Origin: a virus
Lineage: Duplodnaviria; Heunggongvirae; Uroviricota; Caudoviricetes
Reading direction: 5' to 3' (one strand)
Virus record (IMG/VR): IMGVR_UViG_3300010365_001407
Coordinates: 49,463-113,462 of that record
Length of the DNA: 64,000 nucleotides
Shown one piece after another: positions 7,830 through 61,975 of this stretch. The notes under the pieces were generated by a model, which saw nothing but the letters and a program-made list of their open reading frames with translations, was not told where the DNA came from and did not search any database. How positions within the stretch are numbered: the stretch's first letter is position 1; each line of letters opens with the position of its first letter. Both the position numbers and the translations under genes were made by a program.

Positions 7830-7901
7830 TGCGGACTGACGGAATCGAACCGACCTCTTATGGGCTTCAACCATACGCTAAACCGTCTCAGCTAAATCCG
7901 C
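7830..7901 (-). tRNA. tRNA-Phe (anticodon GAA)
   Basis: 72 nt; acceptor GCGGATT/AGTCCGC, anticodon stem TATGG/CCATA with loop TTGAAGC, T-loop TTCGATT. Confidence 0.6.
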
Positions 7902-8678
7902 ATTATATTTTTTTATCCATTTTCTTATAGTGTTATCACTAACACCATATTTTTTACCAGTTGAGACATAGTTTGTTTCTTTTATATCTTTTAATAGTTG
8001 GTATAATGAAGGTCTTTCAACCTTTCTTTGTTTAAATGAATCACATTTAGAACACATTTTAGAACGTTTATATATTTCTATACCACATTCACAATACTTT
8101 TTATTATCTAATAGTTCAAATGTTGGTTTGTTTTCTACTAATCCATTTATATAAAGTATTAAACTGTCAATAAAATACTTTTTAGAATCCTTGTTCAATA
8201 ATTGATACTCACTCCATTTTATTCTAATTATATCCCAACCTAAGTCTTCTAAATATTTATTTCTTCTTTTATCACTTTCAATAATTTTATTATCTAAATA
8301 GTGTTGACTACCATCAACCTCTATATCTATTTTCTTATCTAAAATACAAAAGTCTAATTCGTACAATCCAATTCTGTAGGATTTTGTTATATTAATATTT
8401 TTATCTAAAAAAACCTCAGTAAAATATTTCTCAGGATATGATTCATTTCTACTATGATTTAATAGGTAAGGAACTTTATCAGGATTATTTTTTAAATATT
8501 CTTTTCTACTATTTGATATTTTTTTTCTAGTTTCATCTGATAACTTTCTATTTTTACCAATTTCACTTAATTTACTACATCTAATTTTATAATTTGGATT
8601 TAATTTACAATTTGTAATATGTCCACCAAGTTTTAATCCATTTTCTGTTGTAAATCCACAATACTTACACTCCTTCAT
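7878..8678 (-). CDS. homing-endonuclease-like protein (N-terminal Zn finger, NUMOD3-like motifs, Vsr/DUF559-like PD-(D/E)xK domain)
   Basis: 266 aa; CKYCGF...HITNC, LSDETRKKISNSRKEY, and YELDFCILDKKIDIEVDGSQHY...RRNKYLEDLGWDIIRI. Confidence 0.6.
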   Translation of the reverse strand: MKECKYCGFTTENGLKLGGHITNCKLNPNYKIRCSKLSEIGKNRKLSDETRKKISNSRKEYLKNNPDKVPYLLNHSRNESYPEKYFTEVFLDKNINITKSYRIGLYELDFCILDKKIDIEVDGSQHYLDNKIIESDKRRNKYLEDLGWDIIRIKWSEYQLLNKDSKKYFIDSLILYINGLVENKPTFELLDNKKYCECGIEIYKRSKMCSKCDSFKQRKVERPSLYQLLKDIKETNYVSTGKKYGVSDNTIRKWIKKYNADLAETV

Positions 8679-8754
8679 AATTCAATTATCTTTTCTTTTA
8701 TATATAAATAATTGAACTCCCTCTCCTTAAAAAAGCTGAGTGCTTGTAAATTAG

Positions 8755-8833
8755 TTCCCCCGACTGGGTACGATCCAGTAGTCTGCATATTAAAAGTATG
8801 CGGCTTTCTCCATTTAAGCTACGGGAGAGAATT
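8755..8833. repeat. 79-bp direct repeat, copy 1 (contains tRNA-Lys)
   Basis: Identical to 9152-9231: GTTCCCCCGACTGGGTACGATCCAGTAGTCTGCATATTAAAAGTATGCGGCTTTCTCCATTTAAGCTACGGGAGAGAATT. Confidence 0.9.
8756..8828 (-). tRNA. tRNA-Lys (anticodon UUU) with A54:U58-swapped T-loop
   Basis: Acceptor TCTCCCG/CGGGGGA, D-stem GCTT/AAGC, anticodon stem GCATA/TATGC with loop CTTTTAA, T-arm ACTGG-ATCGTAC-CCAGT. Confidence 0.55.
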
Positions 8834-8838
8834 ATTTG

Positions 8839-8911
8839 GGTGAAAGACGGATCCCGAGACCGCATCTCCTCCTTCACAGGGAGGCATCCTAACCTTTAGA
8901 CGACAATCACC
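8839..8911 (-). tRNA. degenerate tRNA-His-like element (anticodon GUG, G-1/C73), possible pseudogene
   Basis: Perfect anticodon arm CCTCC-CTGTGAA-GGAGG with extra 5' G and discriminator C. Only 5/7 acceptor pairs and a non-canonical T-arm (GCGGT-CTCGGGA-TCCGT). Confidence 0.3.
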
Positions 8912-8920
8912 ATATATCAG

Positions 8921-8991
8921 CACGCCATACAGGACTCGAACCTGTAACACTGGTTTTGGAGACCAGGATGATACCATTTCACCAATGACGT
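8921..8991 (-). tRNA. tRNA-Trp (anticodon CCA)
   Basis: 71 nt; acceptor ACGTCAT/ATGGCGT, anticodon stem CTGGT/ACCAG with loop CTCCAAA, T-arm ACAGG-TTCGAGT-CCTGT. Confidence 0.6.
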
Positions 8992-8998
8992 ATTTTGG

Positions 8999-9072
8999 GT
9001 TGACAGACGGGACTTGAACCCGCAATCCCTTGGCTCACAACCAAGTGCTTTAACCAATTAAGCTACCATCAA
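8999..9072 (-). tRNA. tRNA-His (anticodon GUG)
   Basis: Acceptor TTGATGG/CTGTCAA (two G-U pairs), D-stem GCTT/AAGC, anticodon stem CTTGG/CCAAG with loop TTGTGAG, T-arm GCGGG-TTCAAGT-CCCGT, discriminator C. No encoded G-1. Confidence 0.5.
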
Positions 9073-9074
9073 AG

Positions 9075-9146
9075 TGGAGAGAGTGGGGATCGAACCCACG
9101 ACACCTGCGGCTTCAACACAGTGCTCTACCTCTGAGCTACCTCTCC
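9075..9146 (-). tRNA. tRNA-Phe (anticodon GAA), second copy
   Basis: 72 nt; acceptor GGAGAGG/TCTCTCC, D-stem GCTC/GAGC, anticodon stem CTGTG/CGCAG with loop TTGAAGC, T-arm GTGGG-TTCGATC-CCCAC. Confidence 0.6.
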
Positions 9147-59787: not shown

Positions 59788-59826
59788 TTATTTTACTATA
59801 TATATAAAATAAACATTTCTTCCTTT

Positions 59827-60033
59827 TTATTTAGATTCATCTATTAATTCATTTATTTTTTCTTCAAGTATTGGAAAATCATAGTTTAATACTATATCTG
59901 AAATCTCTTCTGAGAAATCATCTTCAAATATTAAACAATCTGTATTTGTAATAAAATTAATTAGGTTAGGTAGTCCTTGATTATATACATTTATAATCTT
60001 TTCTTTGTTTAAGTAACGCTTGTTAAATCCCAT
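59827..60033 (-). CDS. hypothetical acidic protein
   Basis: 68-aa ORF. Confidence 0.4.
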   Translation of the reverse strand: MGFNKRYLNKEKIINVYNQGLPNLINFITNTDCLIFEDDFSEEISDIVLNYDFPILEEKINELIDESK

Positions 60034-60041
60034 ATTTATAT

Positions 60042-60281
60042 TTATTTATCTAAAATTTTATCTATTTTCTCTGCTCTTCTATTTATTCTATTCAATAATT
60101 CAAATCTATACTCTGACTTAAATCCACACCATCTACACTTCTCTACTGGTTTTTTTGGTGGTTCATTATTTGGTTTAATAGGTATAGAATATGTCTGTGA
60201 TATATCATTTGAACCACATTCAGGACAATTATTTAATGTTTTATCATACCAAGGTATTTCTAATTTACTCCACTCTCCCAT
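60042..60281 (-). CDS. zinc-ribbon protein
   Basis: 79 aa; CPECGS...CRWCGF forms a CxxC...CxxC pair. Confidence 0.45.
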   Translation of the reverse strand: MGEWSKLEIPWYDKTLNNCPECGSNDISQTYSIPIKPNNEPPKKPVEKCRWCGFKSEYRFELLNRINRRAEKIDKILDK

Positions 60282-60411
60282 AATTTTAACATTTTCCCTA
60301 TTTTAATCATTCTTATCCATCTCTTATCTGGTATTCCTGGTTGACCCATAACACCAACAGGTCCACTTGAACCTGTTGGACCTGATGTTATATTACTATT
60401 CATAGTTTTGT

Positions 60412-60582
60412 TTAGTGTTCATATTCTACTTCTTCTATATAAGAGAATACTTCTTTGTTTATTTTAATTATTCTATCAAACATTTCTTGGTTCAAAATAG
60501 CATGGTGAACAACAAATATATTGATGTTGTAGTCATTTGCAAATGATTTAAGAAGCAATAATATAGAATCTATAGTCTGGTA
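60412..60582 (-). pseudogene. duplicated fragment of the 3' end of the SbcC/gp46-like gene
   Basis: Minus-strand translation YQTIDSILLLLKSFANDYNINIFVVHHAILNQEMFDRIIKINKEVFSYIEEVEYEH aligns to the last ~52 aa of the 61943-63640 product (...ILALLKSFSNDYNINIFVVHHAVLNEEMFDRIIRIEKNVFSTIEEVFIKD). Shares a 22/22-nt block ATTATTCTATCAAACATTTCTT with 61995-62016. Confidence 0.6.
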
Positions 60583-60817
60583 TTATTTTATTCAATTGTT
60601 GTTCTCTGTGTTCATCTATTGTGATAAATCTATCCTTTAAGTAATACTTGGTATTACCTAAATCATCTACTAATTTATATCCTGATGGATCAATATTTTT
60701 TATTACAAGATATATTTTACCTATAGTTAATCTTTCTGAATAATAGTATTTTAATCTATTACGTTCTCCATCATCAGGTATCATATCAACACTATTATCT
60801 ATACACACTACTTTCAT
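60548..60817 (-). CDS. hypothetical protein
   Basis: 89-aa ORF; its 3' end overlaps the duplicated fragment in another frame. Confidence 0.4.
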   Translation of the reverse strand: MKVVCIDNSVDMIPDDGERNRLKYYYSERLTIGKIYLVIKNIDPSGYKLVDDLGNTKYYLKDRFITIDEHREQQLNKIIPDYRFYIIAS

Positions 60818-60885
60818 TTATATTTTATAACTTTTTTACAAAAAGTTTCAATAAAAACACATAAATTAACTTTTTCAGTTTCAAA

Positions 60886-60900
60886 AGATAATATATACAT
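60886..60900 (+). promoter_or_regulatory. AAAGATAATATATACAT promoter-like motif
   Basis: Abuts the ATG at 60902. Confidence 0.35.
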
Positions 60901-60901
60901 T

Positions 60902-61975
60902 ATGAGAAAGTTAACAATAGAAGAATTTATAGAAAAGTCAAATAAAATACATAAAAAAAAGTATATTTATGATAGTGTTATTTATATAAATAATTCAACA
61001 AAAGTAATAATAGAATGTAAAGAACATGGTTTATTTGAACAATTACCTAATGCACATATGAGAGGTCAAGGTTGTTCAAAATGTAAGGGTGGTGTTAAAT
61101 ATAATTTAGAGGATTTTATAAAAAAGTCAAATAGTGTTCATAATTATAAGTATAATTATGAACACTCATTTTATGTTGATTCCTATACAATGATTGGTAT
61201 TGAATGTAGTGAACATGGATATTTTGAACAACTTCCTAATAATCATATGTCTGGACAAGGATGTCCAAAATGTATTGGTAAGTCATTATCAGATGATGAA
61301 TTATTAAAAAGGATGAATATGATTCATAATAATAAATATGATTATTCATTGGTATTATTCACTGGTATGCTAAATAAAGTCAAAATAATATGTTCAGAAC
61401 ATGGTATATTTGAACAAAAGTTATCAAATCATATAAATCTTAAACAAGGATGTATAAAGTGTGCAAATGTATATTTATCTAACAAAGAAGAGTTTATTAT
61501 AAAATCTGTAAATAAACATGGTAGTTTATATAATTATGATAATGTTATATACAAAAGTGCTAAAACAAATGTTGATATACTGTGTAAAAAACATGGTTTA
61601 TTCTCACAATCACCAACAAAACATTTATCAGGAAATGGTTGTCCTACTTGTAAATTATCAAAGGGGGAACATTCAATAATGATTTATTTAGATAGCAATA
61701 AAATAGATTATACATCACAATTTAGAATAAAAGGATTTAATTTAATATTTGACTTTTATTTACCAGATTATAACTTGTGTATAGAGTATGATGGATTACA
61801 ACATTTCAAACCAGTTAACTATTTTGGTGGAATAAATGCATTTAATTTACAAATAAAAAATGATTCTCTAAAAAATAAATATTGTTTAGAGAATCAAATT
61901 AAACTTTTGAGAATAAAATATACTGATTTTAAGAATATTGAACTAATCCTTAATGAAAACCTCTTCAATAGTTGA
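60902..61975 (+). CDS. homing-endonuclease-like protein: zinc-finger repeats plus C-terminal Vsr/DUF559-like nuclease domain
   Basis: 357 aa; at least five repeats of EHG-x-F-x-Q...H-x-x-G-x-G-C-x-x-C, then FDFYLPDYNLCIEYDGLQHF. Confidence 0.6.
   Translation: MRKLTIEEFIEKSNKIHKKKYIYDSVIYINNSTKVIIECKEHGLFEQLPNAHMRGQGCSKCKGGVKYNLEDFIKKSNSVHNYKYNYEHSFYVDSYTMIGIECSEHGYFEQLPNNHMSGQGCPKCIGKSLSDDELLKRMNMIHNNKYDYSLVLFTGMLNKVKIICSEHGIFEQKLSNHINLKQGCIKCANVYLSNKEEFIIKSVNKHGSLYNYDNVIYKSAKTNVDILCKKHGLFSQSPTKHLSGNGCPTCKLSKGEHSIMIYLDSNKIDYTSQFRIKGFNLIFDFYLPDYNLCIEYDGLQHFKPVNYFGGINAFNLQIKNDSLKNKYCLENQIKLLRIKYTDFKNIELILNENLFNS

Follow-up and report, generated by a model that had tools for sequence, protein, structure and literature searches.

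Ten free-standing homing endonuclease genes of four nuclease classes crowd a 64-kb stretch of a Lak-like megaphage

The window analyzed here, a whole 64-kb stretch of DNA, belongs to a Lak-like megaphage of >500 kb with a GC content of ~26%, and the standard genetic code suffices within it. The original prediction had listed ten endonuclease-like ORFs in this stretch, which we recovered at their coordinates and all of which match endonuclease families by Pfam and PHROG profiles and by motifs. The predicted very high density and diversity were likewise apparent, as these homing endonuclease genes (HEGs; named below by their first coordinate, Table 1) sum to 8,091 nt, which makes up 12.6% of the window and gives on average one gene every 6.4 kb, and comprise three LAGLIDADG, three GIY-YIG, one HNH, and three PD-(D/E)xK members. 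The class assignments stood for the LAGLIDADG, GIY-YIG, and HNH genes and for 7878 and 60902, but not for 43993, for which the Vsr/DUF559 assignment was ruled out by a DUF7487 match of 98.6 bits. The neighbors predicted as smpB, dam, dnaJ, and gp46-like were verified as SmpB, D12 Dam, DnaJ, and SbcC/gp46-like. The ten HEGs share at most 29-33% pairwise identity and were therefore acquired independently. The ten ORFs are intact stand-alone homing endonuclease genes from four nuclease classes.

Table 1. Coordinates of the HEGs and associated features in the window
Feature	Position	Strand	Context
PD-(D/E)xK gene	7878..8678	-	between tRNA-Lys and tRNA-Phe
HNH gene	9238..9702	-	head of tRNA array
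Double-motif LAGLIDADG gene	13559..14428	-	directly 3' of smpB
GIY-YIG + NUMOD1 gene	15800..16522	+	between thioredoxin and nucleotidyltransferase genes
Ligase 5' half, flank travelling with cassette	21001..22102	-	identity tracks cassette presence
3.4-kb cassette	22103..25479	.	inserted at about codon 3 of NAD-ligase gene
Cassette GIY-YIG gene	22569-23312	+	PF01541
Cassette type II N6-adenine methylase	23362-24528	+	
Cassette 309-aa ORF, no assigned function	24558-25487	-	
GIY-YIG + NUMOD1 gene	39470..40117	+	hypervariable CoaE/M16-peptidase junction
Double-motif LAGLIDADG gene	42185..42994	+	spans dam stop codon to shared terminator hairpin
DUF7487 nuclease gene	43993..44862	-	overwrote Sir2 gene
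Imported dnaJ 5' end (co-conversion tract)	58501..58714	-	identity pattern flips below 58500
LAGLIDADG gene, N-terminal Myb/SANT-like repeats	58702..59787	-	stop overlaps dnaJ start
Native dnaJ start remnant ATGAATCTAAATAAAAA	59824..59840	-	native upstream region runs on beyond
Displaced native gp46 3' end, pseudogene remnant, 147 nt	60428..60574	-	frame continues to stop near 60416
Zinc-finger + DUF559-like PD-(D/E)xK gene	60902..61975	+	convergent with gp46, 33-nt overlap
Foreign gp46 3' end, now in use	61959..62105	-	diverged from relatives

Searches with Rfam intron models, including those for group I intron cores, returned no match at gathering score or E<=1 across the whole window and none at E<=10 in the three LAGLIDADG regions, and no group I/II intron or intein was found around any of the ten HEGs. 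None of them (0/10) lies in frame inside a host protein. Each flanking gene has a full-length orthologue in relatives without the HEG, where the two neighbors are contiguous, and the ends of the flanking genes coincide with the junctions of these relatives, so that the sequence supports the genes as free-standing, as predicted. That they are instead carried by introns or inteins could be argued from the Staphylococcus phage relatives of the LAGLIDADG family, which are annotated as intron-encoded, from the four of 80 IMG/VR homologue loci that lie in ORFs of 495-663 aa, and from a Hint-like domain elsewhere in the window (ORF 50380-51852). This domain, however, has no nuclease, ends in VHN/K, which is not canonical for an intein, and is kept in both close relatives; given also the complete flanking genes and the negative intron searches, we regard intron or intein carriage as highly improbable. 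The claim that no HEG interrupts an ORF holds on the surface only, since relatives show that ends of dnaJ, gp46, and the ligase gene were invaded or replaced, that a Sir2 gene was overwritten, and that a 115-129-aa ORF was replaced. The view that free-standing LAGLIDADG genes are uncommon found no support for this family: at least 2000 homologues are of stand-alone size, 76 of the 80 IMG/VR loci are ORFs of <=400 aa, and two published sets already include stand-alone LAGLIDADG genes, namely the gut-derived Jug phages (PMC12880540) and a dataset centred on ICP1 (PMC10448857).

The window was compared with two close relatives, G1 and G2 (both partial contigs; mean identity ~90% over aligned sequence), and with two more distant complete genomes collinear with it, LR745206 and LR756502, the direction of gain versus loss being inferred by parsimony with outgroups. 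Indel boundaries were sharp, and the HEG content is limited to 7878 and 13559 in G1 and to 13559 and 22569 in G2, so that eight of the ten HEGs are missing from each, and syntenic counterparts were found for none of the ten in the two distant genomes. The shared HEGs exhibit dN/dS values of 0.08-0.20, similar to those of neighboring genes, and are therefore functional and under purifying selection. Most of the ten are recent gains that adjoin or lie within the termini of conserved genes.

The LAGLIDADG genes exceeded the PF14528 cut-off of 22.5 bits (27.1 for 13559, 36.2 for 42185, and 30.9 for 58702), matched phrog_4645 with E values down to 1.5e-49, and each contain two LAGLIDADG motifs with acidic residues. 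Gene 13559 is present in G1 and G2 at 95-96% amino acid identity (dN/dS 0.08-0.17) and missing from LR745206 and LR756502, where the gap between smpB and a 116-aa ORF spans 47 and 25 bp, respectively; its homologues with 58% and 49% identity, of which one belongs to another phage of 590 kb, also lie directly 3' of smpB, which was the upstream neighbor of this clade in every context checked. Gene 42185, which compared with relatives stands in place of the 115-129-aa ORF, is present in none of 20 M16-anchored relatives, and its predicted structure (pLDDT 87.4) shows the LAGLIDADG fold, matching I-Tsp061I, I-AniI, and I-SceI at probability 1.0. All six of its close homologues adjoin a D12 methylase gene, and the clade has this neighbor (dam) in 7/7 otherwise differing contexts. 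Among ten dam-adjacent IMG/VR loci, dam scores are nearly the same in seven, and a nearby dnaJ is also shared by six of these seven, so that the seven look like one non-independent clade. Gene 58702, for which the ATG at 59775 is a likelier start than the annotated one, forms a clean insert of 1.1 kb when aligned with G1 and G2; the cassette lands within the first six dnaJ codons and provides a new dnaJ start, the DnaJ N-terminus reading MDKNKDYY in the window and MNLNKNYY in G1. The adjoining dnaJ tract is 88-89% identical to L140, a genome that also carries the gene (background ~77%), and only 69-76% identical to G1/G2 (background ~95%), which places a recombination breakpoint ~200 nt into dnaJ, at about 58500, and makes this the clearest case of an imported flank. 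The remnant of the native dnaJ start occurs in both gene-carrying genomes, and in the window positions 59824-59880 are 100% identical to G1. Homologues of 58702 (85%, 39%, and 37% identity) are all located directly 5' of dnaJ, which is the downstream neighbor of the clade in 4/4 cases. Thus, the three LAGLIDADG clades each hold one neighbor across unrelated phages, namely the smpB 3' end, dam, and the dnaJ 5' end.

The GIY-YIG genes scored 34.0 (15800), 28.5 (22569), and 28.6 bits (39470) against PF01541 (cut-off 22.6). Alignment with G1 and G2 shows the first to lie in a cleanly bounded insert of 1012 bp (15761-16772); the same junction measures 94 bp in LR745206, and no homologue was found in LR745206 or LR756502. 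The cassette that carries 22569 duplicated the ligase start region (ATGATAGA) and is missing in G1; G2 has a counterpart of its GIY-YIG gene with 89% amino acid identity. The adjacent 1.1 kb of the ligase gene follow this pattern, with identities of ~70% to G1, which lacks the cassette, and of 88-98% (mostly 95-98%) to G2, which bears it, the ligase dS being 0.69 versus G1 and 0.33 versus G2. In place of 39470, G1 and G2 contain a Toprim-like gene together with an ORF of 279 aa, and other relatives a DUF7487-type nuclease.

In the tRNA array, gene 9238 matched phrog_2255 (8e-31) and bears a DH...N...CANCH motif with CxxC pairs, with no match in Pfam; it is missing in G1, which has 236 bp where the window has 672 bp, and G2 harbors an HNH paralogue of 44% identity at this position. 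Gene 7878 combines a DUF559 and MTES_1575 core above cut-off with a weakly matching NUMOD3 and an HTH at the C-terminus, and its last 8 codons (24 nt) lie inside tRNA-Phe. It is missing in G2 and 100% identical in amino acids to its G1 counterpart, within a tract (7801-9078) with 99% identity to G1, where the background is ~90%. The low dS values versus G1 of 7878 (0.028; neighboring genes ~0.3) and of 13559 (0.10; flanks 0.26-0.33) point to recent transfer of both genes. Gene 43993, with a TnsA-like PD-(D/E)xK fold and the motif PDF...IEIK, retains the Sir2 upstream region, the Sir2 ATG, and the last 11 Sir2 codons (EKLYNELTKQL, followed by the stop), and G1 has a Sir2 gene at this locus (3.6e-45). 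Gene 60902 contains treble-clef zinc-finger repeats (DUF4379, DUF723), matched phrog_559 at 2e-78, and shares 31% identity with 7878 in the nuclease domain. The insert that holds it measures 1384 bp (60575-61958), and the cassette took the place of the last ~50 gp46 codons: the displaced end is 96% identical to the gp46 3' end of G1, with the G1-type C-terminal ~52 residues and stop intact, and the end now in use has ~75% identity to G1, G2, and the remnant, compared with 92-97% over the remainder of gp46. Homologues of 60902 (36-47% identity) showed no link to gp46.

The class and motif evidence, the lack of introns, the presence/absence pattern, the imported flanks, and the neighbor fidelity converge on intronless homing, and we consider it likely that the ten HEGs entered the Lak-like lineage separately and spread in this manner. 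Following the model proposed for T4 seg/mob genes (PMC2988022), during co-infection the enzyme would cut a HEG-less allele at a presumed target site in or beside the conserved neighbor gene, double-strand-break repair would copy the HEG and a short flank from the carrier genome, and the imported flank, differing from the native sequence, may shield the new allele from recutting. The imported flanks, displaced gene-end remnants, and overwritten Sir2 gene at the junctions are homing scars.

The HEGs might alternatively be domesticated nucleases that aid the phage by competitor exclusion, amplification of anti-defence loci, or host DNA degradation, rather than being purely selfish. Purifying selection on the shared copies fits this proposal, as do the T4-type SegB that amplifies anti-defence loci (PMC13096335), the protective, HEG-derived odn of ICP1 (PMC10448857), and the HEG located, like T4 segB, in a tRNA array (PMC2330249). 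However, purifying selection is also expected of actively homing HEGs, the absence of eight of the ten from ~90%-identical relatives implies that none is needed by the lineage, and 43993 destroyed a conserved Sir2 gene; domestication, which is compatible with homing, is therefore unlikely as the main account. Somewhat less likely still is that the HEGs are passive cargo of general recombination hot spots, a form of phage mosaicism in which their own nuclease plays no part. The CoaE/M16, dam/188-aa ORF, and dnaJ/gp46 sites are hypervariable in relatives and also hold non-endonuclease cargo (Toprim-like, Sir2, extra methylase, and RNase H-like ORFs occur at the same junctions), and the extra divergence pooled across all junction flanks is marginal (P = 0.03-0.15), the strong signal being confined to four junctions and one side only. 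Such hot spots could account for part of the turnover at hypervariable sites, but they leave unexplained the fixed neighbors of the three LAGLIDADG clades across unrelated phages and the imported flanks that begin exactly at the HEG and end within 150-1100 nt. Lastly, the phage source is uncultured and AT-rich repeats can mislead assemblers, so that the density might reflect a chimeric metagenome assembly; this we consider negligible, because the CoaE-to-DUF7487 stretch with three of the HEGs was assembled identically from an ENA and a JGI sample, three contigs encode identical copies of the 58702 protein, and G1, G2, and L140 hold subsets of the HEGs at the same sites.

Four known systems come closest to the window. 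In fungal mitochondria, as in the window, a HEG brings a copy of the neighbor's terminus and leaves the resident terminus as a pseudogene, though in an organelle and not a phage genome. A similar case in Allomyces atp6 was reportedly described by Paquin et al. in 1994. Partial atp6 and cox1 duplications next to free LAGLIDADG genes are documented in fungal mitochondria (PMC7487136), and no description of an imported gene end with a displaced terminus was found for phages in the literature searched. The T4 seg (GIY-YIG) and mob (HNH) genes, the model case of intronless homing, similarly stand alone between or beside conserved genes, are patchy among close relatives, and drag flanking sequence along (PMC2988022), segB lies in a tRNA cluster like one HEG of the window (PMC2330249), and HEGs make up 11% of T4 coding sequence (PMC10448857), a load similar to the 12.6% reported above. 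Unlike T4, the window also holds LAGLIDADG genes, of which the T4 review makes no mention (PMC2988022), and PD-(D/E)xK genes, its Lak-like host exceeds 500 kb, and cleavage is predicted. ICP1 and other phages likewise have several endonuclease classes near conserved genes, at the edges of allele exchange and mostly free-standing (Barth et al. 2023, PMC10448857); in ICP1, however, T5orf172 and IPA-HNH dominate and LAGLIDADG is intein-borne (PMC10448857), whereas in the window LAGLIDADG genes stand free and exchange has affected gene ends, whose displaced copies are kept in the genome. The Jug phages, huge phages of gut or anaerobe origin, share mostly stand-alone HNH, PD-(D/E)xK, GIY-YIG, and LAGLIDADG genes (PMC12880540), but contain ~18 group I introns per genome that split essential genes, against none in the window, and ~4.7 endonuclease genes per 360-402-kb genome (calculated from the counts in PMC12880540), a far lower density. 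The HEG crowding in this megaphage is an unusually dense, well-documented example of a well-known type of selfish DNA.

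All ten endonuclease-like ORFs of the original prediction, here named by the window positions at which they start, proved to be real genes, each of which matches endonuclease families. The LAGLIDADG genes 13559, 42185 and 58702 all matched PF14528 above its cut-off together with phrog_4645, and each encodes a pair of motifs (FILADGH/FIDGDGC, FLYADGY/FFDGDGW and FIAADGH/LIDGDGS, respectively), both of which end in a catalytic acidic residue. The structure model of 42185 (pLDDT 87.4) comprises an N-terminal helical bundle followed by two alpha-beta-beta-alpha-beta-beta-alpha repeats, and Foldseek matched it to I-Tsp061I, I-AniI, I-SceI, I-DmoI and I-OnuI with a probability of 1.0; the predicted structure is a pseudo-dimeric LAGLIDADG fold. 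When the sequences of 42185 and 60902 were searched against solved structures, no significant match emerged. The GIY-YIG genes 15800, 22569 and 39470 all exceeded the cut-off of PF01541; 15800 and 39470 carry a NUMOD1 or I-HmuI NUMOD-like DNA-binding module, in place of which 22569 has repeated NGW-type motifs along with a phrog_20046 match. No close IMG/VR relatives of 15800 were detected, its matches being fragments of 23–48% identity. The putative HNH gene 9238 matched phrog_2255 (HNH endonuclease, 8e-31) and shows an EFDHKDN...N...CANCH signature and two CxxC pairs, with no Pfam HNH match. Among the PD-(D/E)xK genes, the core of 7878 scored 36.5 bits against DUF559 (cut-off 20.6) and 41.4 against MTES_1575 (cut-off 38.2), while 60902 bears treble-clef zinc-finger repeats and the motif IEYDGLQH and matches phrog_559 (2e-78) and phrog_9084 (homing endonuclease, 1e-23); its core is 31% identical to that of 7878 and did not match DUF559 in Pfam. 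Both proteins were assigned to the Vsr/DUF559-like type, whose core has the pattern D...(E/D)xDG..H. The assignment of 43993 to Vsr/DUF559 had to be revised, as this protein belongs to another PD-(D/E)xK family, DUF7487 (98.6 bits); it also resembles TnsA weakly, has the motif PDF...IEIK and falls in PHROGs families labeled endonuclease or homing endonuclease.

The ten genes sum to 8,091 nt, or 12.6% of the window, a figure that describes a single region and not a whole genome; endonuclease genes make up 11% of the T4 coding sequence (PMC10448857) and ~7% of phage CB7 (PMC7344957). Since their mutual identity is at most 29–33%, they are not recent duplicates within this genome. A search of the window for further nuclease genes and for hidden or degenerate endonuclease fragments, variable ORFs included, found none.

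The nearest public records are the genomes of two unannotated uncultured phages, LR745206.1 (635 kb) and LR756502.1 (642 kb), with 72–75% nucleotide identity, which places the window in a Lak-like megaphage. Its GC content is ~26%, and its tRNA array holds about 14 genes. Recoding of stop codons, which Lak phages are known to use, was considered and set aside, as it gained little over the standard genetic code, under which coding coverage already reaches 88%. An Rfam tRNA-Sec match in the array was likewise rejected as a stop-codon suppressor, its anticodon (UGA) making it a tRNA-Ser. The two tRNA-Lys(UUU) genes are 100% identical. Pfam annotation bore out the neighboring genes that had been named from the sequence and added further ones, yielding a complete SmpB, thioredoxin, a sigma factor, an NAD-dependent ligase, CoaE, an M16 peptidase, a D12 Dam methylase, DnaJ and an SbcC/gp46-like ATPase. 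Besides the tRNA array, translation-related genes are numerous for a phage: they encode a YqeY-like protein, SmpB, an S1-domain protein, an L7/L12-like protein and a nucleotidyltransferase, whose weak match to NTP_transf_6 suggests a possible tRNA-related role.

Positions of features in the window and, where marked, in the IMG/VR locus L007
Feature	Position	Strand	Remark
tRNA array	7035-9226	-	nine genes called by ARAGORN
Additional Rfam tRNA	7035-7118
Additional Rfam tRNA	7130-7213
Additional Rfam tRNA	7351-7435		the tRNA-Sec match
ARAGORN tRNA-???	7727-7820		called tRNA-Leu(CAG) in G1
tRNA-Lys(UUU)	8754-8828
Additional Rfam tRNA	8839-8910
tRNA-Lys(UUU)	9152-9226
YqeY-like	10662-11066
SmpB	14459-14893
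Nucleotidyltransferase	16783-18039
Methylase and 309-aa ORF of the 22569 cassette	23362-25487
S1-domain protein	34468-35556
SPFH/Band_7 fragment	37142-37474		110 aa
SPFH gene of G1	L007 4699-5766		355 aa
L7/L12-like	38313-38729
43993	43993-44862		DUF7487
Sir2 gene	L007 13958-14671
Hint-domain ORF	50380-51852	+	490 aa
60902 insert	60575-61958

Comparison of presence and absence across related genomes, a check proposed with the original prediction, revealed that most of the ten genes are missing from close relatives. LR745206 and LR756502 are collinear with the window in inverted orientation, their flanking genes being 45–80% identical at the protein level, and neither holds a syntenic counterpart of any of the ten (0/10 each); there, smpB is followed by the next ORF after 47 and 25 bp, respectively. 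Two much closer IMG/VR relatives, G1 (3300032323_003295) and G2 (3300020160_002689 plus _002696), have mean identities to the window of 0.90 and 0.89 over aligned 150-nt windows. G1 holds only 7878 and 13559, and G2 only 13559 and 22569, so that eight of the ten genes are absent from each. In wider sets of loci, 42185 was missing from 20/20 anchored on the M16 peptidase, and neither 58702 nor 60902 had a counterpart at its window position in 19/19 anchored on gp46, the single 60902 homolog among these (L045, 32% identical) lying ~8 kb away. The occupants of the corresponding junctions in relatives (Sir2, Toprim-like and SPFH genes, and unknowns) included no nucleases. In G1, the full-length SPFH gene comes with an extra 1.28 kb; the shortening in the window looks like a deletion in its own lineage, unconnected with the endonuclease genes.

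Several junctions preserve the footprints of insertion at base resolution. The 58702 cassette is a clean 1.1-kb insert. The sequence immediately upstream of it matches G1 at 100% and comprises the native dnaJ upstream region with the gene's first 17 nt; the dnaJ now in place begins with MDKNKDYY, the G1 counterpart with MNLNKNYY. L140, a locus of a Lak-like genome, has an 85%-identical copy of 58702 at the same site with the same remnant of the dnaJ start. Over its first ~200 nt, the window's dnaJ is 88–89% identical to L140 (background ~77%) and 69–76% identical to G1 and G2 (background ~95%), a pattern that reverses below position 58500. This flip marks a recombination breakpoint and shows that 58702 was imported with a short flank into a G1/G2-like backbone. 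On either side of the 60902 insert stands a version of the final ~147 nt of gp46: the displaced end, 96% identical to G1, retains an intact G1-type C-terminus of ~52 residues with its stop codon, and the end in current use, ~75% identical, encodes a related but distinct tail.

The 22569 cassette (3.4 kb) consists of the GIY-YIG gene, a type II methylase gene and a 309-aa ORF, inserted at about codon 3 of the ligase, whose start region is duplicated there. Over the adjacent 1.1 kb, the ligase shares ~70% identity with the cassette-less G1 and 88–98% (mostly 95–98%) with the cassette-bearing G2. The methylase is of the N6-adenine type (PADLOC MTase_II, 4e-66) and convergent with the 309-aa ORF, which has taken possession of the start codon and upstream sequence that natively served the ligase. 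This ORF had no match in Pfam, PHROGs or PADLOC, and the methylase was the sole match of defense-system models on the cassette; the ORF may encode a partner for restriction, or it may be cargo of another kind. 43993 overwrote a Sir2 gene present in G1, G2, LR745206 and LR756502, retaining the Sir2 upstream region, the ATG and, in frame, the last 11 codons. 42185 takes up the interval between the dam stop codon and a shared terminator hairpin, in place of a 115–129-aa ORF of G1 and G2, and 7878 lies between tRNA-Lys and tRNA-Phe with its 3' end inside the latter, in a tract 99% identical to G1 (dS 0.028, against ~0.3 in neighboring genes). At the 15800 junction, the only direct repeat was an imperfect AT-rich one of ~14 nt. 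Co-conversion of flanking sequence is clear at the dnaJ breakpoint, the ligase 5' half, the gp46 3' end and the 99% tract at 7878. A flank-divergence test was marginal when pooled over all junctions (P = 0.03–0.15), and strong and one-sided at four of them.

The claim that free-standing LAGLIDADG genes are uncommon did not hold, given that the family of 42185 is abundant (at least 2000 homologs of stand-alone size and more than 567 IMG/VR matches, with ORFs of at most 400 aa at 76/80 IMG/VR loci) and that stand-alone cases in phages have been reported previously (PMC12880540, PMC10448857). These genes tend to keep the same neighbors. A D12 methylase gene adjoins 42185 homologs in all six of the closest examined (48–57% identity), in contexts that otherwise differ, and these methylases are 26–33% identical to the window dam, where they match at all; in the wider set, dam adjacency was seen at 10/80 IMG/VR loci, most of them apparently of one clade. 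The identity of dam dips at 41801–42000, a stretch that covers the DPPY motif (nt 41906) and is a plausible candidate for the target region. Homologs of 58702 (85%, 39% and 37% identity) all lie directly upstream of dnaJ, their stop codons overlapping its start codon, and those of 13559 (58% and 49%) directly follow smpB, one being found in another phage, of 590 kb. For 60902 homologs, no link to gp46 was seen.

Other arrangements were also observed among these families. In a Lak relative (L105, IMGVR_UViG_3300008117_000004, 974–3717), a 42185-family gene sits directly downstream of the NAD-ligase, so which endonuclease gene flanks the ligase varies with the lineage. A clade of smaller phages (L088, L089, L107, L109, L116 and L128; contigs of 27–140 kb) has the order dnaJ ... 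LAGLIDADG - dam, bringing together the neighbors of two LAGLIDADG genes that are separate in the window. In other viral contigs (L151, L157–L160), two to three homologs of 60902 are often grouped within 7 kb, forming small endonuclease-gene islands.

To the extent that sequence is informative, it excludes carriage of the ten genes by introns or inteins. Rfam searches of the whole window at the gathering score and at E<=1 returned no group I or group II intron, and at E<=10 the small regions surrounding the three LAGLIDADG genes, for which a group I check (P3-P7 core) had been proposed, gave low-scoring noise only; RF00028 and RF00029 did not match at any threshold used, and no host gene is split. 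With flanking genes complete and none of the ten in frame with a neighboring protein, the original reading of these genes as free-standing was upheld. Inteins were defined by in-frame insertion, Hint blocks, an N-terminal C/S and a C-terminal HN followed by C/S/T. Among the large ORFs of the window, a single Hint domain was found, without a nuclease, at residues ~303–449 of a protein with a fibronectin-like N-terminal region. This bacterial-intein-like domain begins with Cys, ends in VHN followed by Lys and is 79–85% conserved in G1 and G2; self-cleavage is therefore more probable for it than splicing as an intein. The missing nuclease, the VHN|K end and the conservation in relatives indicate that it is unrelated to the ten genes.

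An assembly artefact is also excluded, being contradicted by independent assemblies: one ENA and one JGI sample yielded identical assemblies of the region that runs from CoaE up to and including the DUF7487 nuclease and holds three of the ten genes. The genes might instead be passive cargo at recombination hot spots, an explanation that is less well supported, as it leaves the conserved neighbor genes unaccounted for. The endonuclease genes common to relatives have dN/dS values of 0.08–0.20, similar to the 0.03–0.3 of most neighboring genes, which indicates that they are kept as working proteins. Domestication of the nucleases, likewise a less well supported reading, may have occurred and is compatible with homing.

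Taken together, the evidence fits a model of intronless homing of the kind described for the T4 seg and mob genes, in which stand-alone endonuclease genes are variably present among relatives and flanks are co-converted (PMC2988022). Under this account, the enzymes would cleave alleles without the gene at the predicted target positions, and the imported flank would confer immunity. Compared with T4 seg/mob, the window adds the LAGLIDADG and PD-(D/E)xK classes, and several of its cassettes bring a replacement end for the neighboring gene while the resident end is left behind. This footprint of a replacement end and a leftover resident end is known from free-standing endonuclease genes of fungal mitochondria (PMC7487136), and a literature search found no description of such a footprint for phages. 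We consider the evidence evenly poised on a more specific proposal, namely that three old and separate LAGLIDADG lineages have specialized on the smpB 3' end, dam and the dnaJ 5' end, that insertion into terminal codons carries them from one phage to another, unrelated one together with a replacement gene end (a 'portable gene terminus'), the resident end staying behind as a fossil, and that a recent burst brought in eight of the ten genes after the split from the ~90%-identical relatives.

The window offers a compact natural record of intronless homing beyond T4, with insertion points, imported flanks and displaced ends. It also provides testable predicted targets (the dnaJ 5' end, the dam 3' region around DPPY and the smpB 3' end) for three uncharacterized free-standing LAGLIDADG enzymes, and alleles with and without each gene are already known. 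LAGLIDADG enzymes are the scaffold of engineered meganucleases. The main value of this dense and well-documented case of a known phenomenon lies in these target predictions and in a clear megaphage example of endonuclease-driven gene-end replacement. Together with the overwriting of genes, as in the loss of Sir2, such replacement adds to the variation among very similar megaphage genomes, which bears on how these genomes are binned, compared and annotated.
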